64,000 bases of DNA from an uncultured virus (IMG/VR IMGVR_UViG_3300042319_002819) (Duplodnaviria; Heunggongvirae; Uroviricota; Caudoviricetes): the IMG/VR virus record IMGVR_UViG_3300042319_002819. One strand, 5' to 3'. The position numbers and the translations under genes are program-made. The stretch's first letter is position 1; every line of letters starts with the position of its first letter. This document shows, in pieces, positions 18,395 through 63,698 of the stretch. The notes under the pieces are model-generated. The model was not told the DNA's origin. It saw nothing but the letters and a program-made list of their open reading frames with translations, and searched no databases.

Positions 18395-18422
18395 TTGATT
18401 TTTCGTGTATAATAAATACTTG

Positions 18423-18480
18423 TGTAGCGCCGATTGTCGGGCTACATTTTATAGTCAACTTGCTTAATAAGGAGAACATT
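18423..18480 (+). promoter_or_regulatory. ROSE-like RNA thermometer leader of hsp20
   Basis: 5' hairpin 18423-18446, then CUUGCU-uaaua-AGGAG pairing over the SD with a bulged G. Confidence 0.65.
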
Positions 18481-28220: not shown

Positions 28221-28504
28221 ATGCACTTTTAAAACCCACCGTTGATTGGATACAAGATGACTTTAAGTCTAACAGAATTCGCTTTGTTGTTGAGCTTCTC
28301 GCTTGGGCTATTAGCATTGGTTGCAGTATTACTATGGCACTCACAGTCCCCACTCCACCGCTTCTTACTCTTTATCCTATTTGGATTATTGGCTGTGCCA
28401 TGTATGCTTGGGCTAGTTGGACTAGGAAATCTTTTGGCATGCTGGCTAACTACATCTTGCTGACCACTATTGATAGTGTTGGCCTTGCACGTATGATTTT
28501 GTAA
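28217..28504 (+). CDS. small membrane protein (3 TM)
   Basis: ATGA-coupled; hydrophobic helices. Confidence 0.7.
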   Translation: MNALLKPTVDWIQDDFKSNRIRFVVELLAWAISIGCSITMALTVPTPPLLTLYPIWIIGCAMYAWASWTRKSFGMLANYILLTTIDSVGLARMIL

Positions 28505-28533
28505 CAAAATTGTAACATGATTCTCCTTAAATA
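28499..28533 (+). promoter_or_regulatory. Pho box upstream of pstS
   Basis: TTGTAAC-AAAA-TTGTAAC direct repeat with 11-bp period, then TAAATA at 28528. Confidence 0.7.
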
Positions 28534-28558
28534 ATCTTGTCACAACAAGGAGAACTCA

Positions 28559-29560
28559 GTGAACAAACTACTAGCAATTTTATTAGCCGCAGTAACACTT
28601 TCAGCAAACGCAGATATTACAGGTGCTGGCGCAACTTTCCCATTCCCAATCTATGCCAAGTGGGCTGAGGGATATAAGAAAACCACAGGTACCAGTTTAA
28701 ACTATCAGAGTATTGGTAGTAGTGGTGGTATTAGACAGATTAACGCAAAAACAGTTGACTTTGGTGCAACAGATGCTCCAGTAAGTGGAGAAAACTTAGA
28801 CAAGAATGGACAAGTGCAGTTCCCTGCTATTATCGGCGGAACAGTTCCTGTAGTTAACTTAGATGGTTTCCGACCAGGCGAACTACGCATCACTGGTCCG
28901 GTTATGGCAGAAGTATTCTTGGGAAACATTACCAAGTGGAATGATCCTAAATTATTAGCATTGAATCCCGGCAAGACATTACCAGATCAACCTATCACTA
29001 TTGTACATCGTGCTGATGGTAGTGGTACAACATTCAACTGGACAGATTATCTTGCCACAGTAAGCCCTGAGTGGCTACAGCGTGTAGGTCGTGGTGCCGC
29101 AGTTAAGTGGCCGGCGGCAACAGCAGTTGGTGGCAAAGGCAATGAAGGTGTTGCAGCCAACGTGAATCGTATTAAAGGTTCAATTGGCTATGTAGAATAT
29201 GCTTATGTTAAGAAAAACAACATGACGTTCCTACAACTACAAAACAAATCAGGCAAATATGTTAGTCCAGATGATTTAACATTTGCTGCCGCGGCAGACG
29301 GTGCTGATTGGTTCTCAGTTCCAGGTATGGGACTCAGCATTGTGGATCAAAAGAATCCTAATGCTTGGCCAGTAAGTTCAGCCAGTTTCATCATTATGTA
29401 CAAAGAACCAAAGAGCAAAGCTACCAGCGATGAAGTATTAAAGTTCTTTGACTGGGCATTTAAGAATGGTAAGAAAGATGCTGTAGATTTAGATTATGTA
29501 CCATTACCTGATGCACTAACAAAGCAGATCCGTGAGCGTGTTTGGACACAGATCAAGTAA
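28559..29560 (+). CDS. pstS: phosphate-binding protein PstS
   Basis: Signal peptide, ITGAGATFP, YQSIGSSGG, DFGATD, HRADGSGTT. Confidence 0.97.
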   Translation: MNKLLAILLAAVTLSANADITGAGATFPFPIYAKWAEGYKKTTGTSLNYQSIGSSGGIRQINAKTVDFGATDAPVSGENLDKNGQVQFPAIIGGTVPVVNLDGFRPGELRITGPVMAEVFLGNITKWNDPKLLALNPGKTLPDQPITIVHRADGSGTTFNWTDYLATVSPEWLQRVGRGAAVKWPAATAVGGKGNEGVAANVNRIKGSIGYVEYAYVKKNNMTFLQLQNKSGKYVSPDDLTFAAAADGADWFSVPGMGLSIVDQKNPNAWPVSSASFIIMYKEPKSKATSDEVLKFFDWAFKNGKKDAVDLDYVPLPDALTKQIRERVWTQIK

Positions 29561-31208: not shown

Positions 31209-32261
31209 CTATGTTTCTCCTAGTGTTCTATTTACACAATTTTTTATTTCCAAGCACATTTTCCTTTGCCAATCAGTTTGCATTACAAGCTGAAAATTAT
31301 GTTCTAGTATTTCTTCAATTTGTTGGGATATAATTATTGGATCCCGGCGACAAAGTTGTTCTACCTGTTCCAACACTAACTCAGTGCGTTTTTTAACATT
31401 GGGCTCAAGATCGTAAGATTCATCAATGACAGTGCTAAATGTCATGAATCCCAGTGCTTTTAAATTTTTAAGATAGTATTGCCCAGCGACTACAACAAAC
31501 AATCTTTTTGCTATCAAGCACTTGAGTATTTTTTCAGTGAAGAACGTTAATTCATTGTCGGGCATGGTTTCGGCCACCAGTGAATAATGGGTTTGATTGT
31601 AGATATCAATGGGCAAGATTTGACTCAAACTTACTATGACTCCGTCAACCATCACCTCCTGTGCTGTGAAATTTACTGGCTCCACTGACAGTGGAAGTAC
31701 TTCCACAGGCCATGAAAAATTACAATCGTTGTATTGTGTGATGTCAAGATCCTGATGCGATGGAAAATATTTTACAATGTTTTGTTGCTTGTTGATTGTA
31801 TCATAGATTTGATCTCGATGTGGTTTTTGCCGGCCTAACAACACATCAAAGTATTTGTGTTTTGGCACCGCAGTAAGTAGATTTAAAACCTCGGGGAAAG
31901 CGTGATAAAATGCAGTGGTGCTCCAGAACCAGTAAGTGCAAAAATTTATCTGTGCATGCGACAGGGTGTAATTTAATGCACCACTGACAAAAAATACCAC
32001 GTTGTCAAAATCAAATGTTTTACACCATTGATGATCGGTTAACTCAATTATAACAACAATTGCCAGCGCAGAATTTTGCTGACATTTTGCAACTAACTGG
32101 TCAGTGTTGTCGTTGAATTCTACAACATCAACTAAACTAACCCTAGTTTCTTTTGGTTGTAAAATCCAATCATCCCAATCTCGAAAAGTCATGTAATTGT
32201 CAAGCTCGGACTGCGACAACCACCATTCAGCTTGGTCAGTTGTTATATAAACGTTGTACAT
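31209..32261 (-). CDS. GT10-like putative glycosyltransferase (paralog 3)
   Basis: FDVLLGRQKPHR, YSLVAET, FFTEKILK, GFMTFSTVIDESYD. Confidence 0.6.
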   Translation of the reverse strand: MYNVYITTDQAEWWLSQSELDNYMTFRDWDDWILQPKETRVSLVDVVEFNDNTDQLVAKCQQNSALAIVVIIELTDHQWCKTFDFDNVVFFVSGALNYTLSHAQINFCTYWFWSTTAFYHAFPEVLNLLTAVPKHKYFDVLLGRQKPHRDQIYDTINKQQNIVKYFPSHQDLDITQYNDCNFSWPVEVLPLSVEPVNFTAQEVMVDGVIVSLSQILPIDIYNQTHYSLVAETMPDNELTFFTEKILKCLIAKRLFVVVAGQYYLKNLKALGFMTFSTVIDESYDLEPNVKKRTELVLEQVEQLCRRDPIIISQQIEEILEHNFQLVMQTDWQRKMCLEIKNCVNRTLGET

Positions 32262-32301
32262 ATACGTATTTAAGTTGGTTGTTTGTGGTCATAACTACTT
32301 T

Positions 32302-33006
32302 ATGACAGAAATTCTTACAACATTGGTGTTGACACACATCACCATACTATGCGTTACTCTTTATTTGCATCGCAGTCAAGCCCACCGTGGTGTGGAATTC
32401 CACCCCGCTGTATCACATTTCATGCGCTTCTGGCTGTGGCTCACCACGGGAATGGTTACCAAGCAATGGGTTGCTGTACACCGCAAACATCATAGATTCA
32501 CAGAACAAGACGGCGATCCGCATAGTCCACATGTGTATGGCTTTTGGCGTGTGTTATTCAAGGGAGCAGGACTTTATCATTCAGCAAGCAAGGACTCTGC
32601 TATGGTAGCACAATATGGAGCAGGCACACCAAATGATTGGATGGAACAACATGTGTACACCAAACACAGTCGTGCAGGCATTGTGCTTATGTTATTAATA
32701 GACCTGCTAGTATTTGGTTTGCCCGGTTTTGTAGTTTGGGGTGTTCAGATGATATGGATTCCATTCTGGGCCGCAGGAGTTGTCAATGGTGTGGGACACT
32801 GGCTGGGATATAGAAACGGTGAAACCAAAGACCTTAGTCAAAATTTCAGTCCCTGGGGCATTGTTATAGGCGGCGAAGAACTGCACAACAATCACCACCT
32901 TGATCCCGCCAGTCCTAAATTAAGTAGACAATGGTTTGAGTTTGATCTAGGATGGTCTTGGATCAGTTTGTTAAAATTTTTGGGTCTAGCCCAGGTAAAA
33001 AATTAG
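32302..33006 (+). CDS. desA: membrane fatty-acid (delta-9 acyl-CoA type) desaturase
   Basis: His boxes HRSQAH, HRKHH, LHNNHH; DPHSP; WFEFDLGW. Confidence 0.92.
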   Translation: MTEILTTLVLTHITILCVTLYLHRSQAHRGVEFHPAVSHFMRFWLWLTTGMVTKQWVAVHRKHHRFTEQDGDPHSPHVYGFWRVLFKGAGLYHSASKDSAMVAQYGAGTPNDWMEQHVYTKHSRAGIVLMLLIDLLVFGLPGFVVWGVQMIWIPFWAAGVVNGVGHWLGYRNGETKDLSQNFSPWGIVIGGEELHNNHHLDPASPKLSRQWFEFDLGWSWISLLKFLGLAQVKN

Positions 33007-33035
33007 TGACCATTCACTAATAAAAATCTTGAATC

Positions 33036-33057
33036 ATGTTGCACTGCAACATAAATA
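33036..33057 (+). promoter_or_regulatory. palindrome ATGTTGCACTGCAACAT (PhaR-like) fused to TAAATA
   Basis: Perfect 8-1-8 palindrome; near-identical copy at 40679-40699 on minus strand. Confidence 0.65.
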
Positions 33058-33072
33058 ATGCTACAATAAGAC

Positions 33073-33127
33073 ATAGGGTGCTGAATAGGTCGGGCCCTGT
33101 AGTAAACTCGCTTAATAGGAGAAATTT
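33073..33127 (+). promoter_or_regulatory. ROSE-like structured leader
   Basis: Hairpin 33073-33100, then CUCGCU-uaau-AGGAG; resembles the hsp20 leader. Confidence 0.55.
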
Positions 33128-33406
33128 ATGTTTACATTAGACGCAACAATCGACGCCGTACAAACCGGTAAAAAACAATTCGTTAAGACATTTGTCCAGA
33201 ACGAAAAAATCGCAGACGCAATGAACACTTTCATTGATGAGCAAGCCTCTTACACAAAGAAAGCTGCCAAAGTTGGAACTGATACGTTTGCTACATTAGC
33301 CAGCGAAATGGTAAAAACTTCACAAGAAGCCATGAAGTTTGACTACACCAAGTTTGGTGAAGGTATCATGAAGGCCTACACTGCTACCACTAGCAAAACC
33401 AAGTAA
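33128..33406 (+). CDS. phasin-like amphipathic helical protein
   Basis: All-helical Ala/Lys/Thr-rich 92 aa without Trp/Cys; PhaR-like box upstream. Confidence 0.55.
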   Translation: MFTLDATIDAVQTGKKQFVKTFVQNEKIADAMNTFIDEQASYTKKAAKVGTDTFATLASEMVKTSQEAMKFDYTKFGEGIMKAYTATTSKTK

Positions 33407-33459
33407 TTCTGGTTAACTGGTCTCTAGACCAATAAATCCTGTTTGTGTATAATGCATAC

Positions 33460-33699
33460 ATGAACAGGATTTTTCTTTTGTGTTTAATTTTGACAGGCTG
33501 TGCACAGGCGCCTCGTATGCCAGTGGATGTTGCATTGATACCCAACGATTGTGCAAATCGTCATGCCATAATTTCATGGTTAGAAAATCTTGCCAAAACC
33601 CCGCAAACAATTCGAGAATCGGATCAAAACTATGACCAAACACAGAGTGCAGTCAAAGCTCGCATTTGGCACCTGCGTTATAATTGCCAGCGTGTTTAG
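33460..33699 (+). CDS. lipoprotein
   Basis: Lipobox LTGC; ATG 6 nt after TATAAT. Confidence 0.7.
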   Translation: MNRIFLLCLILTGCAQAPRMPVDVALIPNDCANRHAIISWLENLAKTPQTIRESDQNYDQTQSAVKARIWHLRYNCQRV

Positions 33700-33976
33700 C
33701 ACCGGATGTTCCACCAGCGCACAACGAGTTATGCCAGTTGACGATCTTAATCGATTTCAAATTGATTGTCGCATCAAACCGCAACAAATTAAATTTTTAC
33801 AAAGCTTGAGAACCAGTCAGGATGACAAACTTGGTGCCAGGATGGCAAATGTTGTACAGCCCTGGACTGTGGTGACTGACTACTCCGGCTATCGTCAACG
33901 AGCCTTGATCGGCAATGGTTACACTGACTGGAGCATCAATCAACTACTGCTTAGATTGAGTCACGACTGCCCATGA
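33632..33976 (+). CDS. lipoprotein
   Basis: Hydrophobic signal ending STGC; DC...C pair like its neighbour. Confidence 0.6.
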   Translation: MTKHRVQSKLAFGTCVIIASVFSTGCSTSAQRVMPVDDLNRFQIDCRIKPQQIKFLQSLRTSQDDKLGARMANVVQPWTVVTDYSGYRQRALIGNGYTDWSINQLLLRLSHDCP

Positions 33977-34536
33977 AAAAAGTTATCACAACATTGTTAT
34001 TGATTGCAACCACAGCAATGGCCAATGACCAGTGTGTCATGCAAGAACGTGTGGTCACTCAAACTGACACAAAAATTTTAGAACGTAGCAAGATACGACG
34101 AGATGTGGTACCATCTCAGCACGGGCGAAAATGCATAGTTGATTTTCGTGTTCGTGTTGGCCGTGAATGGCACACTGCATTTGGTGAGCACACCTGGCCC
34201 GGAGATCGTCCCAGTGAAGAAGCATGTGCTGTGGCAGTAAAACGTGCTGAAGATGATGTTCAACAACGACTTGGACGCACGGTTGCTATAAATGAACGTA
34301 TTCTGGTCTGCAAAGATAGGCCCGAACTTGAAACTCTGCGCCGAACCCAAGTTGGTACAATTGGCGATGCCGGCCAATTCAGAATTCATCCCAATTACCC
34401 AGAAAAGTTTTACCATAATGGTGCCCAGTGTCGTTGGTTTGTTGAGCCTGCATTTACCGGCCGAGATATTCGCACGTTTCAGGGCGTGATCTGTAATGTA
34501 CAAGACCAAAAATGGGTAGTTGTGGACAAATTCTAA
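33973..34536 (+). CDS. exported Cys-containing protein
   Basis: Signal peptide MKKVITTLLLIATTAMA; six Cys. Confidence 0.7.
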   Translation: MKKVITTLLLIATTAMANDQCVMQERVVTQTDTKILERSKIRRDVVPSQHGRKCIVDFRVRVGREWHTAFGEHTWPGDRPSEEACAVAVKRAEDDVQQRLGRTVAINERILVCKDRPELETLRRTQVGTIGDAGQFRIHPNYPEKFYHNGAQCRWFVEPAFTGRDIRTFQGVICNVQDQKWVVVDKF

Positions 34537-34595
34537 CTTGACTGGATATTGCAATTCTTGTATAATTGTGTTATTGATATTACCAGGAGACATCA

Positions 34596-34724
34596 ATGAG
34601 TAAGTTTATAGCAGGTGCAATTTTTGGAATTGTACTGGCCACAGTGGGCTTTGGAGGTATCACTCGAATGTTGGACAAGGGTGTGGATACTGTAAAAACA
34701 CAAACTCAGGAGATTGCACGATGA
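34596..34724 (+). CDS. small membrane protein (42 aa, not in ORF track)
   Basis: TTGACT..TATAAT promoter, AGGAG RBS, MSKFIAGAIFGIVLATVGFGGITRMLDKGVDTVKTQTQEIAR*. Confidence 0.7.
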   Translation: MSKFIAGAIFGIVLATVGFGGITRMLDKGVDTVKTQTQEIAR

Positions 34725-34843
34725 AACGTTTGATTACAATTGCTGTGTTGACGGTGCTCACTGGTTGTGGTACAGTGGGTGGTATGGTAGGTGGTGCCGG
34801 TGATGACTTGAAAAAAGCCGGTGAGTGGGTTAAAACTCGTTAA
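34721..34843 (+). CDS. entericidin (EcnA/B)-like lipopeptide (40 aa, not in ORF track)
   Basis: MKRLITIAVLTVLTGCGTVGGMVGGAGDDLKKAGEWVKTR*; lipobox plus G.G.D+..AG motif. Confidence 0.65.
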   Translation: MKRLITIAVLTVLTGCGTVGGMVGGAGDDLKKAGEWVKTR

Positions 34844-34852
34844 GGAAACATT

Positions 34853-35428
34853 ATGAAAAAACTTTTACTATTGGTGCCTGTTGTGGCTATTATCACAGCA
34901 TGTAGTTCTGCTCCCAAGGATGCATTTGAACGCAGGGCCTACGAAGAACAACGACAGCAAGAAAAGAATACGGAACGTGCAATTGATCAAGCACCCAAAT
35001 GGATGACTGAACTTCCCAAGTCCACATCAGCTGTGTACCAAAACGGTACCTCTGTGAGCCCGGACATGAGCATGAGCGTGAACAAGGCCAAGACTGTGGC
35101 GTTTGGCAAAATTTGCATGAGCGCCGGCGGCCGAGTAAATCAGCAAAGTAAAATTTATCGCACTGACAGCGACAATGCCAGCACTGAATTTTCTGAATTA
35201 GCCATCAAGAGTTTCTGTCCCAGTGTTGACATTACCGGAGTTGAAATAGTAGAAACCAAGATGGTATCTGAAGGTAGTCGGTTCCGAACTTATGTGTTGA
35301 TTGCCCTGCCCACTGGCACTGCTAATCCCATGGCACGTGAGCGAGATGCTCGAGAACAACGCCGAGTAGCCGAAACACGTAGTCGCGAAGCTTTTAAAGA
35401 GTTGGAACAAAGCACACCCAAGCAATGA
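34853..35428 (+). CDS. lipoprotein (LPP20-like)
   Basis: Lipobox ITAC; PKW..E.P and A...A...I pattern. Confidence 0.65.
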   Translation: MKKLLLLVPVVAIITACSSAPKDAFERRAYEEQRQQEKNTERAIDQAPKWMTELPKSTSAVYQNGTSVSPDMSMSVNKAKTVAFGKICMSAGGRVNQQSKIYRTDSDNASTEFSELAIKSFCPSVDITGVEIVETKMVSEGSRFRTYVLIALPTGTANPMARERDAREQRRVAETRSREAFKELEQSTPKQ

Positions 35429-35446
35429 CAAATTGCTATTCATGAT

Positions 35447-35472
35447 AAACCGGGCTAGTCCCGGTTTTTCTT
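35447..35472. terminator. intrinsic terminator between convergent genes
   Basis: aaaccggg-ctagt-cccggttt followed by T-run. Confidence 0.8.
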
Positions 35473-36203
35473 TAGTATGTTAAATGGTCAGTTGTTTTAA
35501 ATGGTTTGCCTGCACAAGCATTATCAAGTTGGCACATTACTTTGTGCCTTAGACGTTGAATAATCTTGTGTTCAGTGTTCCAATCAAATGCTTTTAAGTA
35601 TCGATAATAGCTGGTTCGTTTGTGTCGCCGGACTCCGGTACTGGCCATGTATTGGCCAATAGCGTCAGGATCATATCCAAATCGATCAATCATTTCACAG
35701 GCAATGTTAAAGCTAAATGCACCCATTTCATCGGTATCGCCATAATACTCTTGTGCCTGTCGATCTTTGGCACGTTCGGCTGTGCTTAAATATCCAGGTA
35801 TGGCTTTGAACTTTCTTGCTCGATACTGGCGCATGTGCACAATTTCGTGCAAGATAGTATCAGCAAACAATTGACACATACGTTGAAATCGATATTTTGT
35901 CAAGTATATCTTTTCGTCAAGTATGTTGTAATTGAAATTAATTTCAATTGGTCTTGCTTGTTTCTTGTAATCAATCTCACTGTAGTACATTCCGCCAATG
36001 TAAATCCAACCAATTTTGGTGGTTGTGTCTCTGAGATTTTTTACGCGGATGGGAATATTCCGCCGAATATGTGTGCTCATGATTTTTTGAATCTGATCCA
36101 CCGGCAGTTCGCGATTTGTTACTTGTTTGTGAATTGAATACAGTAAACGATACAAATTATCGCGAGTTAACAGCGTCCAATTATACGATTTTCGAGTTGC
36201 CAC
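35472..36203 (-). CDS. HExxH zincin-like protein
   Basis: TILHEIVHMRQY ... EYYGDTDEMGA. Confidence 0.65.
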   Translation of the reverse strand: MATRKSYNWTLLTRDNLYRLLYSIHKQVTNRELPVDQIQKIMSTHIRRNIPIRVKNLRDTTTKIGWIYIGGMYYSEIDYKKQARPIEINFNYNILDEKIYLTKYRFQRMCQLFADTILHEIVHMRQYRARKFKAIPGYLSTAERAKDRQAQEYYGDTDEMGAFSFNIACEMIDRFGYDPDAIGQYMASTGVRRHKRTSYYRYLKAFDWNTEHKIIQRLRHKVMCQLDNACAGKPFKTTDHLTY

Positions 36204-36259
36204 GATTGTCTCCCACGTATGTTATTACTTAGTGTACTAGGAGATTTGGGCAGAGTCAA

Positions 36260-37621
36260 TTAATCGCTGACCTGATAGCTGATTTTGCCCTTGTCTTCCT
36301 GGGCCGAACTCTTGGTTTTAAGTGATACTTTTCCATCAACTTTGGCTGGCCAGAATGCTTTTGTTACTAATTTACCATTTTTAATATTGCTGTAAATCTG
36401 AACAAAGTTAAATCCCAAACTGGTTAACACAGCTTCGCGGAAATTGGGCACAGCACCAGCGTTCACCAATTTCATAACATCATTGGTCACTGCATAGTAT
36501 ACTTTACCACCATCTGTGGCATTGCCCTCGGCCACTTGTGGGCTTAGTCTGGAAGCGGTGGCCTTCATTAATTTTGGTGGGAGGCTTCCACCTTTTTTCT
36601 TAAAACTGGTGACAATATCTTGTACTTCGTCTGCTTGCCATGGCAGGTATGGTCGCCAGGCCTCAGGAACTAATTCAGGACTGTACTGATACAGCCAGTT
36701 CATCAACGCAAATGGCTGGGTTACTCCGGACAATGCAGGATCTTGAGCCTTTTTAATAAAACTATAAGCGTCGGGATATTTTCTTGCCAAGAATGGAGGC
36801 ACTTTCAATGATGTCAGTGCTGGTGGTGCACCTTTGCCGGCAGCCTTGCTTGACATAGCAAGAGCATTACCGGTTTGTCTATTTAAAAGACCATAGCTGT
36901 CAGCAATAGGGTTGCTGGTGTTCTTGGGGAAATACAATAACAAACTACCTAGATCCTGACCCACCCAATTCAAGAACGCATCGCGCTTGGGAAAGTCAGC
37001 AACTCCATTTAACACACTTAATACTCCCAGGAATTCGCTGGCATAAAGTTCAATGGCTTTTTGTTCTTGTGCACTGAGATTGTCGGGTACTATGGGCACT
37101 TGTCCCTGTGTAATTTGTTTGGCCATGGCAATAACAGCGTCGCCAATTTGACCCATGTCTTTTAAATGTGAGTTGGCAATTCTTTTGTAGAGTTCACTGG
37201 CCGGGAACCCTCCAAAGTCCAAGATGCTCTGCACTCCAGCTTCTAATTTTTCAGGATCCACGTCCTGGCTTGGGAATACGTCTGCAGGTTTAACCGGAAT
37301 GCCTTCGCTTTCTTTGCTGCCAAATTCCACAGTTTTTTGCAAGTCAGTATTTTTAACCGGGTTGCCGTTGATGTCAGTCATAGCAATTACACCGGTGGGG
37401 CCAGTTTTTACCCAGGCAGCTACTTTACGTGCTTCTTTTGGGTCAATGGTCACTTCTTCTCCGCTTACTTTGGTAAATGGTGAGCTGTTAATGACCTTGT
37501 ATAAAAACAATTCTGGTCGTGTAAATGGCTTGCCCGTGCGTGGGTTCTTCACAGCACTGGCTGAGTTGGCTGGTATTTGGTCTGCCCCTAGCTTGGCTTC
37601 GGTTAAATCTTGTAATCGCAT
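36260..37621 (-). CDS. late hypothetical protein, possible packaged PD-(D/E)XK-like nuclease
   Basis: TAAATA 4 nt upstream; N-terminus MRLQDLTEA; FP...NPIADS...AMSSK. Confidence 0.5.
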   Translation of the reverse strand: MRLQDLTEAKLGADQIPANSASAVKNPRTGKPFTRPELFLYKVINSSPFTKVSGEEVTIDPKEARKVAAWVKTGPTGVIAMTDINGNPVKNTDLQKTVEFGSKESEGIPVKPADVFPSQDVDPEKLEAGVQSILDFGGFPASELYKRIANSHLKDMGQIGDAVIAMAKQITQGQVPIVPDNLSAQEQKAIELYASEFLGVLSVLNGVADFPKRDAFLNWVGQDLGSLLLYFPKNTSNPIADSYGLLNRQTGNALAMSSKAAGKGAPPALTSLKVPPFLARKYPDAYSFIKKAQDPALSGVTQPFALMNWLYQYSPELVPEAWRPYLPWQADEVQDIVTSFKKKGGSLPPKLMKATASRLSPQVAEGNATDGGKVYYAVTNDVMKLVNAGAVPNFREAVLTSLGFNFVQIYSNIKNGKLVTKAFWPAKVDGKVSLKTKSSAQEDKGKISYQVSD

Positions 37622-37648
37622 GGTGTATTTATTGAAATAAGTATCATA

Positions 37649-38635
37649 ATGAAGACAAACATTAACGTGCAAATATGTGGAGACCATTGGGTAAATTCTG
37701 ACGAAGTACTGGCCCAGTTAAACAACGCCAACAACACACAGAACATTGTGCTAGACATGAATACCGAAGGCGGTAGCCTGTATGCCCTGGGCATTGCAGA
37801 TTCTTTGTTGACAGTGTGCACACAGCGCGACATTGATGTAAAAAAAGTGTTCATTGACAATTGGCCCAACGCTGTAGAACAAATACCATTTACACGAGTT
37901 TACACACCCATAGTCAGCCATTTCTTTTGGCTCAGTGAAAATTACTGGTTGCAAGAAATACCAACATCAACGCATGAATATAGATTTGGTTATTTTATGG
38001 GTAGAAAAACTCCTTCAAGGGCAGTGATGCTGTATGAGTTGAACCAACAGCACAGCAATGATTTTCTTTTCAGTGCCATGCAAACACGCGGCCCTATGCC
38101 ATGGCAAGTCGGCATGCCCGGCAAATACTTGGAACATCTTGAAGATTGGTTGCCCGCCAATCAGCATCAATCATTCAATGAATGGTGGAATACATGTCCG
38201 GTCAAGAGCTTAGATCAGCGCCAAGTCAGTGATCAATATGATCCAGCTTACAATACCAATCGTAGCTTGTTAGAGCACTACTCAAAATTTGACATTGAGC
38301 TAGTGGCCGAAACTTACACCTTGGGCACCACATTCTTTCCCACAGAAAAAACTGTGAGACCCATCATGGCCGGACGTCCCATGTTGGTGTACGGCCCACG
38401 GAACTTTTTAGAAAATCTACAGCAACTGGGGTTTAAAACTTATGCAGATTTCTGGGATGAAAGCTACGATCAATTTTCTGGACCCGAAAGATGGCATAAA
38501 ATACATCAAGTCATTGACACATTTTTAACAATGCCCAACAGAGATCAATTAAATGCTGTCAAGGCCATGCAACAGATTGCCAACTACAATCGCCAACATC
38601 TAGTGAATCTAATTAAACGGTATCGCCCCACATGA
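37649..38635 (+). CDS. GT10-like putative glycosyltransferase (paralog 4)
   Basis: FGYFMGR...SR, IELVAET, FPTEKTVRPI, GFKTYADFWDESYD. Confidence 0.6.
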   Translation: MKTNINVQICGDHWVNSDEVLAQLNNANNTQNIVLDMNTEGGSLYALGIADSLLTVCTQRDIDVKKVFIDNWPNAVEQIPFTRVYTPIVSHFFWLSENYWLQEIPTSTHEYRFGYFMGRKTPSRAVMLYELNQQHSNDFLFSAMQTRGPMPWQVGMPGKYLEHLEDWLPANQHQSFNEWWNTCPVKSLDQRQVSDQYDPAYNTNRSLLEHYSKFDIELVAETYTLGTTFFPTEKTVRPIMAGRPMLVYGPRNFLENLQQLGFKTYADFWDESYDQFSGPERWHKIHQVIDTFLTMPNRDQLNAVKAMQQIANYNRQHLVNLIKRYRPT

Positions 38636-39624
38636 TTATTCGCACCATAGACCAAGGATGGGGGCAGGAATGGCCCTTGAAACAATTTGAAAAAGAATTG
38701 CTAGACCAGTATCTAGCACCAGTGTCCCGGGATGCAAGTCGTACAGTGGTCATCAACAGTATCTGGTACACTGATCAGTTGCATGCCCAAACACTCAATG
38801 AATTGCGACAACTTGACTTTGATCAAATTGTGCTGTTGGCTACCCTAGACTGTGCAATACCACACCCAGAATGGTTTGCTGAATTTGACTGCAAAGTGTT
38901 GGCCGTGGGCTACTATCCAGGTGCAAACTACTTGGATTTCTGGGCACTGGTTGTTGATCGATTTTTTGCCATGCCCGACTATGCCATCAATGATCCCACC
39001 ATGATAGACACTGCCTACATGTGTTTGAACAGAAAGCCGCACTGGCACCGACGACAAGTTTATCAACAACTCAAAGATGCTGACTTACTGGATCATGGTA
39101 TTGTCAGCATGGGTGGCGATGACGAATATCCGCCACAGCGCATTTTGTTATTAGACGATGGCCAAACCGATATTGCACCCAATCCTGGTCCCGGACAACA
39201 CGGCATTGCCAATGACATTGCAAGCTTGGGGCATAGAAAAAATTGGCAACGACACTTGTTAAATGTTGTCACAGAAACAGTGTGGGACATTGATCATCAT
39301 CATTTTGTCAGTGAAAAAATATTCAAACCCATGCTGGGACAACGACCGTTTATAGTGTATGATCCAACGGGAGCAACAGCGTGGCTGACGCATCGAGGTT
39401 TTGAGACCTACTATCAGGATTTTAGTGACATTGCTGACTTTGATATTGCACCGGCAGGTCAGCAAGTACAGTTTTTAACTAACCTGTGCGCACAACCCAA
39501 CTCATATTGGTTGTCCAAGTATGTTGCGCTACAGGACAAGATACTGTATAATAAAAACAGATTCAGTGAATATGTCACCGAACAACAGGTTAAAATTAAA
39601 CAAGGAATACAATGCCAAACTTAG
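38632..39624 (+). CDS. GT10-like putative glycosyltransferase (paralog 5)
   Basis: [36 protein letters not shown]. Confidence 0.6.
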
Positions 39625-40205
39625 TCCCCATCGTTCTTGAGCAAACATCAAAAGGCGAACGAAGTTACGACATTTACAGTCGTCTGCTCCGAGATCGTAT
39701 CATCATGCTGGACACCGAAGTTGGTGAACATACTGCCAGTTTAATTGTTGCTCAAATGTTGTTTTTAGAAAGTGACAACCCTGACAAAGACATTAGTTTT
39801 TATATCAACAGTCCTGGGGGTAGTGTCACAGCCGGGATGGCCATCTACGATACCATGCAGTTTATCAAGTGCGATGTGCACACTATTGTCATGGGGCAGG
39901 CCTGTAGTATGGGTTCATTGTTGGCCACAGCCGGAGCACCGGGCAAGCGTTATATTTTGCCCTATGCTCGACACATGATCCATCAACCTTCGGGTGGTGC
40001 ACGTGGGCAGGCTACGGATATTCAAATCCAAGCCCGCGAAATACAAAAAATGAAAGAATATTTGACCAACATCTATGTCACGCACAATACCGCAGGAAAA
40101 ACCTATGCAGAATTGAGTGCTGACATGGAACGTGACTTCTTCATGAGTGCAGAAGAGTCAGTGGCCTACGGCCTAGCCGACAAGATTATCACCCGGCGTG
40201 ATTAA
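39612..40205 (+). CDS. clpP: Clp protease proteolytic subunit ClpP
   Basis: [39 protein letters not shown]. Confidence 0.97.
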
Positions 40206-40303
40206 AACCAGCCGGTGAATTCATCGGGGTCAACGAGGGGGTGAACTTCCCAGCCATCTCTTGACCAACGAAGCAACATTAATAGAGTTTCTAAGTATGT
40301 CAT
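40202..40303 (-). CDS. micro-ORF 4 (33 aa)
   Basis: [46 protein letters not shown]-coupled. Confidence 0.55.
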
Positions 40304-40377
40304 TTATTAAACTCCTCTGCCATACACACAAGAATTATTATCCCAAATAATATAATTTGAATTGCTGCCAATTCCAT
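40300..40377 (-). CDS. micro-ORF 3, single-TM peptide (25 aa)
   Basis: MELAAIQIILFGIIILVYMAEEFNK*; GGAG RBS. Confidence 0.55.
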   Translation of the reverse strand: MELAAIQIILFGIIILVCMAEEFNK

Positions 40378-40379
40378 GA

Positions 40380-40484
40380 TTATCTCCAATAATGATATTT
40401 GCTAGCAGAGCTTTGACGATATTCGTGAATCATCTCCGCCCAGGTCATTAATCCGTTAATGAATTTATTTAGAATATGTTTCAT
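40380..40484 (-). CDS. micro-ORF 2 (34 aa)
   Basis: MKHILNKFINGLMTWAEMIHEYRQSSASKYHYWR*; ATGA-coupled. Confidence 0.55.
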   Translation of the reverse strand: MKHILNKFINGLMTWAEMIHEYRQSSASKYHYWR

Positions 40485-40636
40485 AATCCGTAGTCCTGTT
40501 GATTATAACGATTAATCCAATAATTTACTTCGGCTTCATTCTGAAGATTTTTTGATTGTAAATAACGTTCTAAACGTGATTGATAATCTTGTTTAGGAAA
40601 CATTTCTGCTAATCTTTCTAATAGTCGTGCTATCAT
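40481..40636 (-). CDS. micro-ORF 1 (51 aa, DUF3563-like)
   Basis: AGGAGA RBS; MIARLLERLAEMFPKQDYQSRLERYLQSKNLQNEAEVNYWINRYNQQDYGL*. Confidence 0.65.
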   Translation of the reverse strand: MIARLLERLAEMFPKQDYQSRLERYLQSKNLQNEAEVNYWINRYNQQDYGL

Positions 40637-40659
40637 ATTTTCTCCTAGTTAATATAGAA

Positions 40660-40738
40660 ACTCGTGATTTCTACTGAGTATTTATGTTGCATTGCAACAA
40701 CACTCATGGTTTCTACTGAGTGTTGCACAAAAACAACA
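40660..40738. promoter_or_regulatory. complex divergent control region (20-bp direct repeats, PhaR-like palindrome, N8 palindrome)
   Basis: actcRtgRtttctactgagt at 40660 and 40702; tgttgcattgcaaca 40685; tgttg-N8-caaca 40721. Confidence 0.65.
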
Positions 40739-41444: not shown

Positions 41445-41446
41445 TT

Positions 41447-41647
41447 ATGGCATATCTAAGATTTGAACACGATCAAAAATGGGGGCCACGCAAAGGGCTT
41501 GAAGGTCCTTTTCACTACCCCAACGGTCAGGTCCTGTACTACGACCCCCGGGCAGGTGAGTACTACGACCCCACCACTGATTTTTACGTTCCCAACGAAG
41601 ATGTTGCAGAATTGCAACAGATGATTTTTCAGCGTCTAGCCAGTTGA
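41447..41647 (+). CDS. hypothetical phage protein
   Basis: GLEGPF...YYDP..GEYYDPTTDFY; AAGGAG RBS. Confidence 0.75.
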   Translation: MAYLRFEHDQKWGPRKGLEGPFHYPNGQVLYYDPRAGEYYDPTTDFYVPNEDVAELQQMIFQRLAS

Positions 41648-41672
41648 CCTGAAATGGCAGATTTCGTATAAT
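41644..41672 (+). promoter_or_regulatory. sigma70 early promoter
   Basis: TTGACC-17-TATAAT; tgttg-N8-caaca at 41602. Confidence 0.85.
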
Positions 41673-41705
41673 ACTTGTATTGTAAACAAAACAGGAGAAA
41701 CAGCA

Positions 41706-41981
41706 ATGGCTTCCATTAAAGAAATCAATTCTGCTATTATTGCAGGCAACTTTACCAATGATGAGCTGGTCAGTATTGGTGATGCGATTCGATTTGCCCG
41801 AGCGCAACTCACTCATCAAACTAAACGAAGTTTGACAATTGGTAGCACAGTGAAATTCACCAGCGCCAAACGTGGCATGACAGTGACTGGTACTGTGAGC
41901 AAGATTGCCATCAAGTACATCACAGTCAACAGTCCACAGGGTGCGTGGCGTGTGCCTGCCAACATGCTGGAGGTGGTATGA
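41706..41981 (+). CDS. hypothetical protein (SH3-like C-terminus)
   Basis: AGGAG RBS; G.V.KI..K...V....WRVPA.ML. Confidence 0.75.
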   Translation: MASIKEINSAIIAGNFTNDELVSIGDAIRFARAQLTHQTKRSLTIGSTVKFTSAKRGMTVTGTVSKIAIKYITVNSPQGAWRVPANMLEVV

Positions 41982-42157
41982 GTCAAATGAGCGAATTAGA
42001 TATTGAAATAAAATCAATGACATATTCTGAACTTGAACAGGCCTGGCTGGCGTTGAAGAATTCACCGTCAAAAGGTGTGCGTGACGAAGCCCTGCAAGAA
42101 TTTTACGTTCGAGAACTTGAGCGTCGTGAAAACATGTGGAAATCGATAGGTTTATAA
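41978..42157 (+). CDS. hypothetical protein
   Basis: GGAGG RBS; coupled. Confidence 0.6.
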   Translation: MSQMSELDIEIKSMTYSELEQAWLALKNSPSKGVRDEALQEFYVRELERRENMWKSIGL

Positions 42158-42654
42158 TGAACTGCAACCCTACACTCACTGCCGAAGAATTCAAGACCAT
42201 CCATAATGCCTTGTGGGAGTTGGATGGTGTCAAACAAGAACTTGAAAGTGTTCTGCACAAAGACCTTTACATCAAGTTGGCCCGTGTGGCAGGTGATATC
42301 CGCAAAGGGCTGAGTAGTGCCTATGAACAGGATTCACAGGCGGTTGAGCGCAAGAGCGATCACTATGAGCGAATCCGTGAAGAACTGGGACTCTCAACGA
42401 CATGGAGTATGTACGAGGTCAATGATCTCAATGAACGTCATCCTTACCAGGCGGCCACAACTGTGATTTACACCGATCACTGGGGCGACAAGGATGCTGT
42501 GAGGATTCCAATCAATGGCTTGACCTGGGCCGCATTGTACGTGGCCGCCAATGCCGCCATCCGTGACAGTGGCGACACCCATCATGTCTACATTGAAGAT
42601 TTCAAACCCTCTGAGGGCGATGTCACCACTTTGAGGCTAACTACCGGAAGCTGA
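42157..42654 (+). CDS. hypothetical protein
   Basis: SGD.HHVYIEDF....L.TGS C-terminus; coupled. Confidence 0.7.
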   Translation: MNCNPTLTAEEFKTIHNALWELDGVKQELESVLHKDLYIKLARVAGDIRKGLSSAYEQDSQAVERKSDHYERIREELGLSTTWSMYEVNDLNERHPYQAATTVIYTDHWGDKDAVRIPINGLTWAALYVAANAAIRDSGDTHHVYIEDFKPSEGDVTTLRLTTGS

Positions 42655-45823: not shown

Positions 45824-46093
45824 ATGAAACATATGAATCCAGAAACCAAGACCTTCAAGGTGTTCACTGCCCTGCGTAGCGGCGACACTCTCACTCCTGC
45901 CGAAGCCAAAAAGCGTTTTGGCGTGGGTAACTTGGCTGCCGAAGCCAGCCGTATTCGTCAGCACGGCTTTGCTGTGTATGCAAACAGCCGCAAAGCTGGT
46001 AACGGTGTAACAGTTACCGAGTATGTTTTGGGCAAGCCAAGCCGCAAGGTTGTGGCAGCTGGCTACCGAGCATTGGCCATGGGTTTGGTCTAA
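45824..46093 (+). CDS. winged-helix DNA-binding protein
   Basis: G.TLT..EA..RFGV.N..A..S.IR..G. Confidence 0.65.
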   Translation: MKHMNPETKTFKVFTALRSGDTLTPAEAKKRFGVGNLAAEASRIRQHGFAVYANSRKAGNGVTVTEYVLGKPSRKVVAAGYRALAMGLV

Positions 46094-57078: not shown

Positions 57079-57261
57079 ATGATAGTACATTATGCGTCTG
57101 CCAGCCAAGTTGTTGGCGATAACAATACTGAATCAGAATATCGATTAACAGGAAAAAAATTTCAGGTAATCGAATTTGATGCCAACACTTGTTCTTTGTT
57201 ACTAGAACAAGCCGAGGCTCAAGGGATAGAAGTAGTCATCATCAAGGAGAAATCAACATGA
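57079..57261 (+). CDS. hypothetical protein
   Basis: Follows TTGACA..TATAAT; no RBS. Confidence 0.45.
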   Translation: MIVHYASASQVVGDNNTESEYRLTGKKFQVIEFDANTCSLLLEQAEAQGIEVVIIKEKST

Positions 57262-57449
57262 CAACACAACACGAACAAATCGTCGCCGCCTACGAAACAT
57301 ACATTGCTGAAAACGCAAAGTTCAGCGAAAAAGGTGTCAAGGCCGCTGCCGCTCGTGCTCGCAAAGCATTGCAAGAAATGAGCAAGGGCATCAAAGAGCG
57401 TCGCAAAGAAATCACTGCTGAAAAAGAAGCATTGACTGTAGCCAAATAA
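57258..57449 (+). CDS. histone H1-like (Hc1-type) DNA-binding protein
   Basis: KF.EKG.KAAAARARKAL.E......E.RKEI. Confidence 0.8.
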   Translation: MTTQHEQIVAAYETYIAENAKFSEKGVKAAAARARKALQEMSKGIKERRKEITAEKEALTVAK

Positions 57450-57463
57450 TCAAAAACAGAGAC

Positions 57464-57955
57464 ATGCCAATTTCAACTATATCTATAGATGAGCTGGCTG
57501 GTATCAATAACCTCAACGATACCATGTCAACTGTTGACTTTTTAAGTTCGTCAAACACCGTTGATACAATCACGCTGACTTCGCCATCCTATAGTTTTTC
57601 AAATTCAACAATGAGTGGGGCAGTGTTGACCGCTGGCTCAAACGGTAGCAACACTATTTGGGGCACAGGCACATCAGGCTTGAATGGTACAAGTGCTGCC
57701 AAACTCAATCAACAAGGTATGTTGAGTTTAAAAGGTGACAAGGCTGACATTGACATCAATGGTGTGAGTCTAATGAAAACTTTGACCAGTATTCAAGAGC
57801 GACTCAACATATTAACACCTGCGCCTGAGCTTGAAAAAGATTGGGATCAGCTACGCGAGCTCGGAGAGCAATATAGAAAATTAGAGGCCGAGTTTGAAGA
57901 AAAAAGTAAGATGTGGAAAACACTAAAAGCCATGCCACCACCGGAGATAGAATGA
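57464..57955 (+). CDS. hypothetical protein
   Basis: Ser/Thr-rich N-terminus, ADIDING, coiled-coil C-terminus. Confidence 0.7.
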   Translation: MPISTISIDELAGINNLNDTMSTVDFLSSSNTVDTITLTSPSYSFSNSTMSGAVLTAGSNGSNTIWGTGTSGLNGTSAAKLNQQGMLSLKGDKADIDINGVSLMKTLTSIQERLNILTPAPELEKDWDQLRELGEQYRKLEAEFEEKSKMWKTLKAMPPPEIE

Positions 57956-58770
57956 CACCTAAACAACGAATCAAACACATAGTCAAGTGGACCAACACCT
58001 ATGCCAAGATTGCCAAAATTAACACTTTAGTGGTGGGAATTTCAGGCGGCATTGACAGCAGTGTGGTCAGTGCCTTGTGTGCAGAAACAGGTTTGAAGAC
58101 CATTGTGGTGCAGATGCCTATTCGTCAAAACAAAAAATTAGACAATCGCAGTTCAATGCAGGCCACTTGGTTGATGGAACGTTACAAAAACGTCACACAC
58201 ATAAGCATGGACTTGACCAAGGTGTTTGATGCATTTGAAAAAAATCTCATACCTTATTGCAGGGAAAATGAAGATGAACAAAGGGTTGACCTTGGCTTTG
58301 CTAATTCACGTGCTAGACTACGCATGATGACCCTGTACCAAATTGCACAAAGCCATGGTGGTATTGTGGTGGGCACAGGCAACCGGGTAGAAGACTTTGG
58401 TGTAGGCTTTTTTACCAAGTATGGCGACGGCGGTGTAGATATCAGCCCTATTGGTGACTGTATGAAAACTGCGGTATGGGACATGGGCAGAGAATTTGGC
58501 CTGCCACAAGAGATTATTGACGCACCTCCCACAGATGGATTGTGGTCAGATGATCGCACCGATGAAGACCAACTGGGTATGAGCTATCCAGATTTAGAAC
58601 GTGCTATGACCAATGATGAACATGATCGTCAGTGTGTGTATGAAACTTTGCCAATTGAGTTGGGCAAAGAAGAACGAGCACAGCTCAAGAAGTATCGAGC
58701 AATTCGAGCTAGAAACTTACACAAAATGTTGCCAATTCCAGTTTGCACAATGCCCAAGGACACCAAATGA
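57952..58770 (+). CDS. nadE: NH3-dependent NAD+ synthetase
   Basis: [47 protein letters not shown]. Confidence 0.93.
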
Positions 58771-59093
58771 CCCATGTGGTAACTGAATCTTGCATCAAAT
58801 GCCGGTACACTGATTGTGTGGATGTGTGCCCGGTGGACTGTTTCAAAGTAGGTCCTAACTTTTTGGTGATTGATCCAGATGAGTGCATTGACTGTGCAGT
58901 TTGTATTCCAGAATGTCCGGTCAATGCCATCTACGCCGAAGAAGATGTTCCACAAGATCAACTTGAATTTGTAATGTTAAATCGAGAATTGGCCAAGTCT
59001 TGGCCCACTATCTCAAAAAGAGTTGCTCCGATTGCTGATGCCGATGAATGGGCCAAAGTTGTTGTAAAAAAACAACACTTAGATCGTGGTTGA
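58767..59093 (+). CDS. fdxA: 7Fe ferredoxin
   Basis: [31 protein letters not shown]. Confidence 0.93.
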
Positions 59094-61165: not shown

Positions 61166-61515
61166 ACTTTGAAGAAACCGCAATGTGGCAACGCCTAAGC
61201 AACGGTGATGCCAACTATTATACCAAAGCCGCAGAATCAGAACGCACAGCATTTCGTGTTTGGCTCAAAGGCCTGCTACAAGAACAACGAATCACTGTGG
61301 AATTTGAAAAAGCTGATGGTACTACACGGGCCATGGTTTGTACCTTGAGTGAAGAAAACGGTGCTAAGTATGTAGTTAATGAGACCAAAGGAGATGCTGC
61401 CACACCCAAGAAGAAACCCAACGATGATGTGTGCGCAGTCTGGGACTGTACGCAAAACGCATGGCGAAGTTTTCGTTGGGATAGACTAAAGAGGATTGAA
61501 TTTTCAATTGAGTAA
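61162..61515 (+). CDS. WYL-like/SH3 beta-barrel phage protein
   Basis: VEF.KADGT.R.M.CTL ... VWD....AWRSFR. Confidence 0.8.
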
Positions 61516-61726
61516 AGAAGAAGGTTTAAGGGTTGAGGGCACAGTATTTGACATCTTGCCCAATGCCACGTTTCGTGTAAAAGTTGATGTTCTTGGAACA
61601 TCAGTACTGGGAGTGATTTCAGGCAAGATGAGGAAAAACAACATTCGCATTTTGCTGGGTGATCGAGTAGAAATGGAATTCAGCCCCTATGATCTCACTC
61701 GCGGCCGAATTGTTCGTAGAAAATAA
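61508..61726 (+). CDS. infA: translation initiation factor IF-1
   Basis: [39 protein letters not shown] start. Confidence 0.93.
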
Positions 61727-63140: not shown

Positions 63141-63698
63141 ATGATGCATACAACAATACGTCAAGATCTTGAACTACTCGAAGCCAGCACACGCCCGGCC
63201 AAGCTGGAAACTACTCCGTTGCCCTACAGCGAAAAAGAGTTGGAACCTGTGATGAGCAGGGCCACTATTGACTATCATTTTGAGCATTTGGCCAAAGGCT
63301 ATGCCAAACGCTACAACGCAGGAGAAGGCAATGCGGATTTTAATCGTGCTGGCAGTTTTTTACACAACAAGTTTTTCCCTCAGCTTCGGGCTCCCAAAGG
63401 CGCCAACCGGCCACGAGGTGCAGTACTTGCGCTGATAGAAGAAAAATTTACAACCTGGGAAGATTTCAAAGAAGAATTCAAACAAGCCGCAATGAAGATC
63501 CAGGGTTCAGGTTGGGTGTATTTGAGCACCGGCGGTGATATTAAGACCATTGCCAACCATGCTGTTCGCACAGATATATGCGTACTTATTGATTGGTGGG
63601 AACATGCCTGGGCCTTGGATTACCAAGCAGACAAAGAACGATATCTTGACAACATTTGGAAAATTATCGATTGGGACGTTTGTAACGAACGCCTATAA
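63141..63698 (+). CDS. Fe/Mn superoxide dismutase (shortened, with N-terminal extension)
   Basis: LPY...LEP.MS..TIDYH, FN.AG..LH..FF, GSGW.YL, DWWEHA. Confidence 0.88.
   Translation: MMHTTIRQDLELLEASTRPAKLETTPLPYSEKELEPVMSRATIDYHFEHLAKGYAKRYNAGEGNADFNRAGSFLHNKFFPQLRAPKGANRPRGAVLALIEEKFTTWEDFKEEFKQAAMKIQGSGWVYLSTGGDIKTIANHAVRTDICVLIDWWEHAWALDYQADKERYLDNIWKIIDWDVCNERL

Follow-up and report, generated by a model that had tools for sequence, protein, structure and literature searches.

PhaR-type operators in two promoters of a large freshwater phage and the possible viral sensing of host carbon-storage granules

Introduction

Phages are known to exploit sensors of their hosts that respond to phosphate, nitrogen or DNA damage. 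Polyhydroxybutyrate (PHB) ranks among the main carbon and redox reserves in many freshwater and soil bacteria. The bacterial circuit closest to the subject of this work is the one formed by the regulator PhaR and the phasin PhaP. As far as the available text of two sources goes, a degenerate palindrome, centred on a single base and with TGC-N3-GCA as its core, lies there on or beside the core promoter of a gene for a small granule-associated protein, with titration by the granules as the expected signal (PMC12849132, PMC12542648). The palindromic motif given for Ralstonia eutropha PhaR is YTKNTGCRNYGCANMAR, applied with up to 3 mismatches (PMC12849132), and the consensus for Sinorhizobium meliloti PhaR/AniA is WNWDDNYGCRNYGCRNHHWNW, backed by electrophoretic mobility shift assays and by point mutants that abolish the shift (PMC12542648). 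On the viral side, cyanophage genes are described as controlled by the host PhoBR system via pho boxes (PMC10976474), and phages of mixed cultures producing polyhydroxyalkanoates (PHA) as carrying genes of the PHA pathway (phaC, phbB, fadJ and others; PMC12013262). Here we analyse a stretch of 64,000 nucleotides (nt) from an uncultured virus of the Caudoviricetes (IMG/VR record IMGVR_UViG_3300042319_002819), called the window below, in which a PhaR-type palindrome precedes a phasin-like gene and, again, an operon of micro-open reading frames (micro-ORFs). Both copies are probably operators for the host PhaR which, titrated by storage granules, would gate these two phage cassettes.

The locus shares with the PhaR/PhaP circuit its type of palindrome and the placement of the operator. 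It differs in that the operator is borne by a jumbo phage, in whose related records searched we found no phaR, phaC or phaZ, and in that each phage promoter has one perfect palindrome instead of the 2–3 degenerate sites of the bacterial phaP promoters described in the available text. What appears to be regulated is, moreover, a phage-only protein family and micro-ORFs. A leader hairpin and another inverted repeat are also present that did not turn up in the bacterial loci examined. As in the cyanophages wired to PhoBR, the site of a host nutrient-state regulator stands before phage genes, and the pstS gene of the window has a Pho-box-like repeat of its own; the cyanophages, however, respond to phosphate outside the cell by way of a two-component activator (PMC10976474, available text), whereas here the signal would be the state of an intracellular storage polymer, sensed by a repressor that the polymer surface titrates. 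The phages of PHA-producing cultures carry enzymes called by annotation, with no mention of phasin or phaP found in the available part of that source (PMC12013262), while the window has no PHA enzyme among its scanned ORFs. Wiring of lytic phage genes to a host nutrient regulator is thus known, and the new element would be the regulator itself, the granule-titrated PhaR. In the literature searched, we found no paper on a phage-borne PhaR operator, a phage phasin or a phage sensing an intracellular storage polymer.

Two copies of a PhaR-type operator

The 21-mer TGTTGCAnTGCAACATAAATA occurs at 33037-33057 on the plus strand and at 40699-40679 on the minus strand, and at no third place in the window. 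The first copy, TGTTGCACTGCAACATAAATA, lies 70 nt upstream of the ATG of an ORF of 92 amino acids (aa), and the second, TGTTGCAATGCAACATAAATA, 42 nt upstream of a 51-aa ORF. They are identical at 20 of 21 positions, the sole difference being the central base of the palindrome, and stand 7.66 kb apart. The palindromes themselves are:

33037..33051, plus strand: PhaR-type operator 1, 7-1-7 palindrome TGTTGCA-C-TGCAACA (consensus fit with flanks, 33034-33054)
40685..40699, minus strand: PhaR-type operator 2, TGTTGCA-A-TGCAACA, followed by TAAATA at 40684-40679

The initial annotation had reported this pair with its positions, 20/21 identity and 7.6 kb spacing, all of which hold, and shuffling does not yield it. 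With up to 3 mismatches allowed, the 21-mer pattern returned the two sites and the reverse reading of site 1 and nothing else in the window, against a mean of 0.02 matches in shuffled sequence, where none of 100 shuffles reached 3. For the 15-bp palindrome alone, the window contains two perfect copies and 8 other matches, each with 3 mismatches, so that apart from the perfect pair its matches are at chance level (10 found, 10.3 expected). Extended to relatives, the motif scan found two sites in G002, a close relative with a complete genome of 352,754 bp and terminal repeats. The palindrome was ruled out as a terminator, its stem being at most 5–6 bp long and followed by no T run. A look-alike at 41602-41619, TGTTGCA-GAAT-TGCAACA, combines the half-sites of the PhaR box with a 4-base centre; it lies inside an ORF on the minus strand (41445-42260) and also appeared among the weak terminator-like hairpins.

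The S. meliloti consensus WNWDDNYGCRNYGCRNHHWNW is matched by both sites at 21 of 21 positions. Their fit to the R. eutropha motif YTKNTGCRNYGCANMAR is 15/17 and 16/17, inside the 3-mismatch limit used with that motif, with misses at the outermost positions only. For Herbaspirillum PhbF the motif is TG-N-TGC-N3-GCAA. We scanned 185,579 genomes, one per bacterial species, for the core word TGTTGCANTGCAACATAA. At least 120 stretches matched and, among the matches listed, nearly all belong to Pseudomonadota according to their record titles, many of them being the longer palindrome TTATGTTGCANTGCAACATAA. For 80 of these loci, the ORFs compared with Pfam were the longest one close by on either side, 150 in all. 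A PHA-specific family adjoined the core word in 28 of the 80 loci: Phasin_2 in 22, and PHB_depo_C, PHA_synth_III_E and PhaR itself (PHB_acc_N) in 2 each. DUF3141 and short-chain dehydrogenases (2 loci each) were excluded from the 28, and this way of picking ORFs overlooked some likely phasins (e.g., L098 and L058). In alpha-, beta- and gammaproteobacteria alike, PHA genes are marked by the core word, and five Burkholderiales genomes contain 2–9 sites each at no more than one mismatch versus 0–1 for the reversed word. The consensus fits and the repeated association of the core word with PHA genes in Proteobacteria support the earlier proposal that the window palindrome is a PhaR-type operator, to which PhaR is predicted to bind. 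Since no PhaR domain (PHB_acc_N) was found in five related jumbo-phage records, two of them 97–100% complete, the regulator is most likely the PhaR of the host, as also proposed initially.

Conservation of the operator among phages

The exact 21-mer is present in 23 IMG/VR contigs, 11 times before the phasin-like gene or a comparably placed small helical gene (divergent in L008 and L011) and 12 times before a micro-ORF. Its flanks vary freely among these contigs while the word stays. Each related genome has one or two copies: G002 two, 7.8 kb apart across its ends and the second with one mismatch, and G003 to G006 one each.

In a second approach, 80 phage loci of the phasin-like family were collected via the protein; they gave 64 distinct upstream regions, and 640 random windows from the same loci served as controls. 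The S. meliloti consensus was found exactly in 29 of the 64 regions versus 1/640 controls, and with up to one mismatch in 44/64 versus 7/640; the R. eutropha motif, with up to two mismatches, was found in 42/64 versus 15/640. Even the positions that the consensus leaves loose are kept in the 44 boxes (T1 in 44/44, G2 in 40/44, T4 in 43/44, C14 in 40/44 and A15 in 44/44), and the centre (positions 7 to 9) varies as R, N, Y. In some relatives (among them L173, L186, L233, L179 and L183) the right half-site is mutated (TGCAAGG or TGCCAGG) or the palindrome is absent, the −10 hexamer and the leader being kept; they are natural operator-minus variants useful for comparison.

Promoter architecture and leader of the phasin-like cassette

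Operator 1 belongs to a compact one-gene cassette, whose features, with those of the gene upstream, are:

32254-33006: fatty-acid desaturase gene (desA; Pfam FA_desaturase, E 1.1e-14), upstream of box 1 and not under it
33004..33019, plus strand: inverted repeat TAGTGA-N4-TCACTA, overlapping the desaturase stop codon, 17 nt upstream of box 1
33029-33034 and 33052-33057, plus strand: alternative promoter P1 (a sequence reading), TTGAAT and TAAATA separated by 17 bp
33039..33067, plus strand: predicted sigma70-type core promoter P2, with its −35 TTGCAC at 33039-33044 within box 1 and its −10 TACAAT at 33062-33067, separated by 17 bp
33074..33100, plus strand: conserved hairpin at the predicted mRNA 5' end (RNAalifold)
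33105-33115, plus strand: conserved AACTCGCTTAA, past the leader hairpin
33118-33122, plus strand: Shine-Dalgarno sequence AGGAG
33128..33406, plus strand: phasin-like gene, 92 aa, three predicted helices
33434..33482, plus strand: intrinsic-terminator-like hairpin (17 pairs, 33434-33472) with T run, closing the cassette

The geometry of P2 recurs in the family: when box positions 3–8 (TTGCNN) are read as −35, a hexamer matching TATAAT at 5 or more of 6 positions stands 16–18 bp further on in 38 of the 44 distinct phage boxes. In distant phasin-like relatives TAAATA is replaced (AAGTTA, ATTTAT, TCATTG), whereas a TAYAAT 10–11 nt further on, 17–18 bp after the −35 inside the box, is kept. The operator is thus placed on core elements of a predicted promoter. 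Whether P1 or P2 is used, DNA of the core promoter lies under the operator, so that repression would probably work by occlusion, in agreement with the available description of R. eutropha phaP1 (PMC12849132).

TAAATA is invariant among the 23 exact-match contigs and recurs before a few host-like cassettes: it precedes pstS and Hsp20 and occurs at both PhaR sites. It may therefore act as a −10-type element, and this recurrence gives no sign of a late function. Before pstS (28559-29560), the region 28500-28535 contains the direct repeats TTGTAAC-AAAA-TTGTAAC, the layout of a Pho box, with TAAATA 10 nt later. The exact 18-mer of this repeat is found in 46 viral contigs, in 16 of which a PstS homologue follows 40–55 nt behind, and TAAATA stands 10 nt past the repeat in 16 of the 46 loci.

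Transcription of the phasin-like cassette is predicted to start at ~33073-33075, so that the mRNA would open with the leader hairpin. On 45 sequences, RNAalifold supported 10 pairs in it, 7 of them with compensatory changes; no Rfam family reached its gathering score anywhere in the window, this hairpin included. The Hsp20 leader (18420-18475) resembles the phasin-like leader (33074-33122), with a 5' hairpin, a GCYG...CGGG inner stem and then ACTYGCTTAA and AGGAG. Contigs from four RNA libraries (four studies; relatives with 88–97% identity) cover ~33077-33398; such presence in RNA libraries does not prove transcription. The contigs leave 33006-33073 and everything past 33413 uncovered and were not counted for transcript ends.

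The inverted repeat TAGTGA-N4-TCACTA was found in 40 of the 64 distinct phasin-like upstream regions versus 4 of 554 control windows, at a distance from the box that varies between 8 and 25 nt (by eye). With up to one mismatch it occurs in G002 at the phasin-like locus only, and in G003 at that locus and at one further site with one mismatch (279979-279994); none was found in the 128 bacterial loci examined. The adjacency of desA noted in the initial annotation is real, and desA has no PhaR-type box of its own.

The phasin-like protein

The AlphaFold model of the 92-aa protein (pLDDT 67.9) consists of three helices (residues 4-22, 26-69 and 73-91). Its sole Pfam match is Phasin_2 (PF09361; E 0.011), at 16.3 bits below the cut-off of 24.9. 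This family is also the only recurrent weak match among its relatives, found at E <= 0.1 in 25 of 150 representatives (best 1.2e-4), the next family being found in 4. The nearest ESM Atlas clusters with a family were Phasin_2 (0.87), PHB_acc (0.86) and PHA_synth_III_E (0.85), all below 0.9 and to be read as leads only. A profile search against PDB sequences returned designed helical bundles only, and tblastn found no match for the protein in 50,697 phage records. Clustered at 90% and 50% identity, the family gives 982 and 354 clusters, respectively. Like the Phasin_2 phasins, the protein is small, helical and placed under a PhaR-type operator; unlike them, it stays below the family cut-off and has about half the length of the bacterial phasins found here (120–190 aa), its granule binding being putative. 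The chances that it is a granule-binding, phasin-like protein are about even.

The micro-ORF operon and bacterial DUF3563 genes

Operator 2 precedes four open frames, confirming the micro-ORF operon of the initial annotation at the level of open frames:

40720-40701 and 40678-40661, minus strand: direct repeats CTCAGTAGAAA(C/T)CA(T/C)GAG (CTCAGTAGAAAyCAyGAG) flanking operator 2, a short hairpin being possible in each
40202..40636, minus strand: micro-ORF operon, four tightly packed open frames
40636-40481, minus strand: micro-ORF 1, 51 aa
40484-40380, minus strand: micro-ORF 2, 34 aa
40377-40300, minus strand: micro-ORF 3, 25 aa, hydrophobic
40303-40202, minus strand: micro-ORF 4, 33 aa

ATGA overlaps join the first frame to the second and the third to the fourth. 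Two −10 candidates follow the box, TAAATA (40684-40679) and TAGAAA (40673-40668), the latter located 18 bp past TTGCAA (40697-40692) and contained in the downstream direct repeat. Whether the box is present or lost, relatives retain the motif CTAAATA-N3-5-AGTAGAAAC. GTAGAAAC was ruled out as a general phage promoter, as it has a promoter context at site 2 only.

The 51-aa product has no Pfam match. When its family (7 members) was aligned with 17 bacterial DUF3563 proteins (PF12086), hhalign gave a probability of 53% (E 1.3e-4, 44 columns). Behind the same 21-mer, other phages have a DUF1127 protein (E 1.5e-11) or, in L009, a micro-ORF with a DUF3563-like product (24.5 bits at E 2.8e-5, short of the cut-off of 26.9 bits). 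In Burkholderiales, a PhaR-type box lies within 280 nt upstream of DUF3563 genes in 17 of 28 loci, exactly in 6 of them, versus 19 of 560 control windows, none exact (loci L252-L281; two from unpublished genomes were left out of the count). This suggests that the bacterial DUF3563 family, of which we found no mention in the literature searched, belongs to the PhaR regulon. Given these boxes and the alignment with the micro-ORF, both phage cassettes would mirror members of the host PhaR regulon.

Genomic setting

The window (G+C ~43%) is part of a large phage genome. Its ribonucleotide reductase (RNR) large subunit has its closest cultured relatives, with 56–62% identity, mostly in jumbo phages of ~290–370 kb (XaC1, GAP32, 7t3, PA5oct), the best match being Stenotrophomonas phage DLP_6 (168 kb). 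No near-identical DNA was found among cultured phages. G001, the nearest record, is a fragment of 13.6 kb that lacks the motif. The stretch is present in many lake-water metagenomes. Host-like auxiliary genes are abundant in the window (RNR, DNA ligase, NifU, Hsp20, PstS, fatty-acid desaturase, ClpP and porin, as well as NAD synthase, ferredoxin, translation initiation factor IF-1 and superoxide dismutase), and most genes between the two box sites were assigned to no family. Host assignment via the phage porin was uninformative, since it showed merely 28–46% identity in a comparison with 401 Burkholderiales genomes. Other features located in the window are:

45824-46093: winged-helix HTH_39 protein
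57189-57449: Hc1 histone-like protein
57913-59093: NAD synthase and ferredoxin
61496-61726: IF-1 homologue
63141-63698: Fe/Mn superoxide dismutase

Discussion

The arrangement described above lends itself to a simple switch. PhaR is the repressor of phasin promoters, and nascent PHB granules, with the free surface that they present, draw it away from the DNA. With the phage operator built into sigma70-type promoters, over the −35 hexamer and the spacer, PhaR would block the RNA polymerase of any host in which no granules are growing, whereas in a PHB-depositing host it would be titrated away and the two phage cassettes would fire. The first would deliver a single 92-aa helical, phasin-like protein from a gene with its own structured leader and terminator, and the second four micro-ORF products, the first of them DUF3563-like. 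Control over the mobilisation of the carbon and reducing power stored by the host would be a plausible gain during infection. PhaR binding, repression rather than activation, granule coating by the 92-aa protein and the gain for the phage are what we infer from the sequences.

A number of observations weigh against this scheme. The phasin call, on which the initial annotation was itself tentative, held in part: the small all-helical model and the recurrent Phasin_2 similarity favour it, while no phasin-like family member seen reaches the Pfam cut-off of Phasin_2, profile-profile comparison with 19 bacterial phasins gave hhalign probabilities of only 4.7% and 9.5%, and a fold search of the model against the PDB returned nothing at E <= 0.001, only generic helical matches. 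The family was also not found in the 401 sampled Burkholderiales genomes. DUF3563-like and Porin_4 genes only hint at a Burkholderiales host. Activation by PhaR is described too, for phaP3 of R. eutropha (PMC12849132, available text), so that the sign of the regulation is deduced from the position of the box alone. The RNA contigs stem from relatives, may include DNA carry-over and cannot place the start site, and that of one relative extends 141 nt further upstream in unlike sequence. The 28 of 80 core-word loci beside PHA genes are far above chance when judged from the few phasin genes per genome, a judgement made with no formal control. Finally, about one third of the phasin-like family promoters have no good box or a damaged right half-site, and the micro-ORF family keeps the box in just 11 of 52 distinct upstream regions (controls 6/520). 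Since the box has been lost in part of both families, PhaR control appears to be dispensable: the switch is common yet not essential.

Other explanations of the same sites can be envisaged. The initial annotation described the palindrome as fused to the late promoter of the phage, and CATAAATA might indeed be a T4-type late promoter served by a gp55-like sigma factor, with the palindrome merely fused to it and late genes gated by PhaR. It agrees at 7 of 8 positions with the T4 late consensus, TATAAATA. The jumbo-phage affinity of the RNR large subunit, the invariance of TAAATA in the exact-match contigs and its presence before pstS and Hsp20 would fit such a promoter, as would the strand bias of ATAAATA in G002 (30 versus 8), where it is rarer than composition predicts. 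A T4-type late promoter, however, is a consensus that recurs before many structural genes, and no such recurrence was seen: the window contains no TATAAATA and six ATAAATA, half of which fall within genes or at gene ends, and the 352,754 bp of G002 contain 38 ATAAATA. The 21-mer itself occurs just once or twice per genome, the distant relatives give up TAAATA while keeping TAYAAT, and the association with the Pho-box-like repeat points to the host sigma70 instead of a late sigma. The fusion to a late promoter was thus not borne out, and we regard this explanation as unlikely. It is rather improbable, too, that a DNA-binding protein encoded by the phage recognizes the palindrome and that its likeness to PhaR sites reflects convergence or mimicry. 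The phage does encode helix-turn-helix proteins (e.g., the HTH_39 protein at 45824-46093), most genes between the two sites belong to no family, and the 21-mer is kept more strictly than a host operator requires. Against this, the same word marks PHA genes in three proteobacterial classes, the phage boxes vary where the PhaR consensus sites are free (positions 7 to 9), the five related phage records yielded no PhaR-like domain, and a regulator dedicated by the phage to just one or two sites per 350 kb would be unusual.

The boxes might instead act on the host, replicated phage sites soaking up PhaR so that the host PHA regulon is derepressed, or serving as a copy-number timer for the cassettes. 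Host genomes hold ~2–9 near-perfect sites, which phage copies, at an assumed copy number, could equal or exceed; moreover, PhaR is known to be titratable (PMC12849132, available text) and perfect palindromes probably have high affinity. Nevertheless, the boxes always lie in promoters of specific genes with a fixed geometry, which a pure decoy does not need, and several relatives have a single site, making a decoy or timer improbable. Least credible, and in our opinion very improbable, is the view that the palindrome came from a host phasin promoter, captured together with its gene, and passively persists with no present role. That some lineages have lost half of the box or all of it and still keep the gene would agree with this idea, but elsewhere the box is kept while flanks and coding sequence diverge to 22–45% identity, it precedes two unrelated gene families, the leader and the second inverted repeat appear to be phage-specific, not being found in the bacterial loci examined, and the protein family did not turn up in the 401 sampled bacterial genomes. 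Control by the host PhaR thus remains the reading that we favour.

A broader picture can be drawn more tentatively, and we hold it as possible though not as the likelier outcome. Widespread freshwater phages of ~350 kb may read the carbon-storage state of their hosts via PhaR and, in PHB-forming cells only, deploy a phage-specific granule-coating protein and DUF3563-like micro-proteins that would take over the granule surface and its mobilisation. Together with a PhoB-type switch of pstS, this would make a small panel of nutrient sensors, and bacterial DUF3563 proteins would be unrecognised members of the PhaR regulon. The phasin-like family is abundant and found in lake metagenomes of many studies, the perfect and compact operator-promoter offers a ready test object for PhaR biology, and the link with DUF3563 would be a first handle on an uncharacterised family of micro-proteins. 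If true, a PHB-linked switch would tie viral expression to the feast-and-famine state of the host, which would matter for the way carbon moves through lakes and for phage problems in the production of bioplastics by fermentation.

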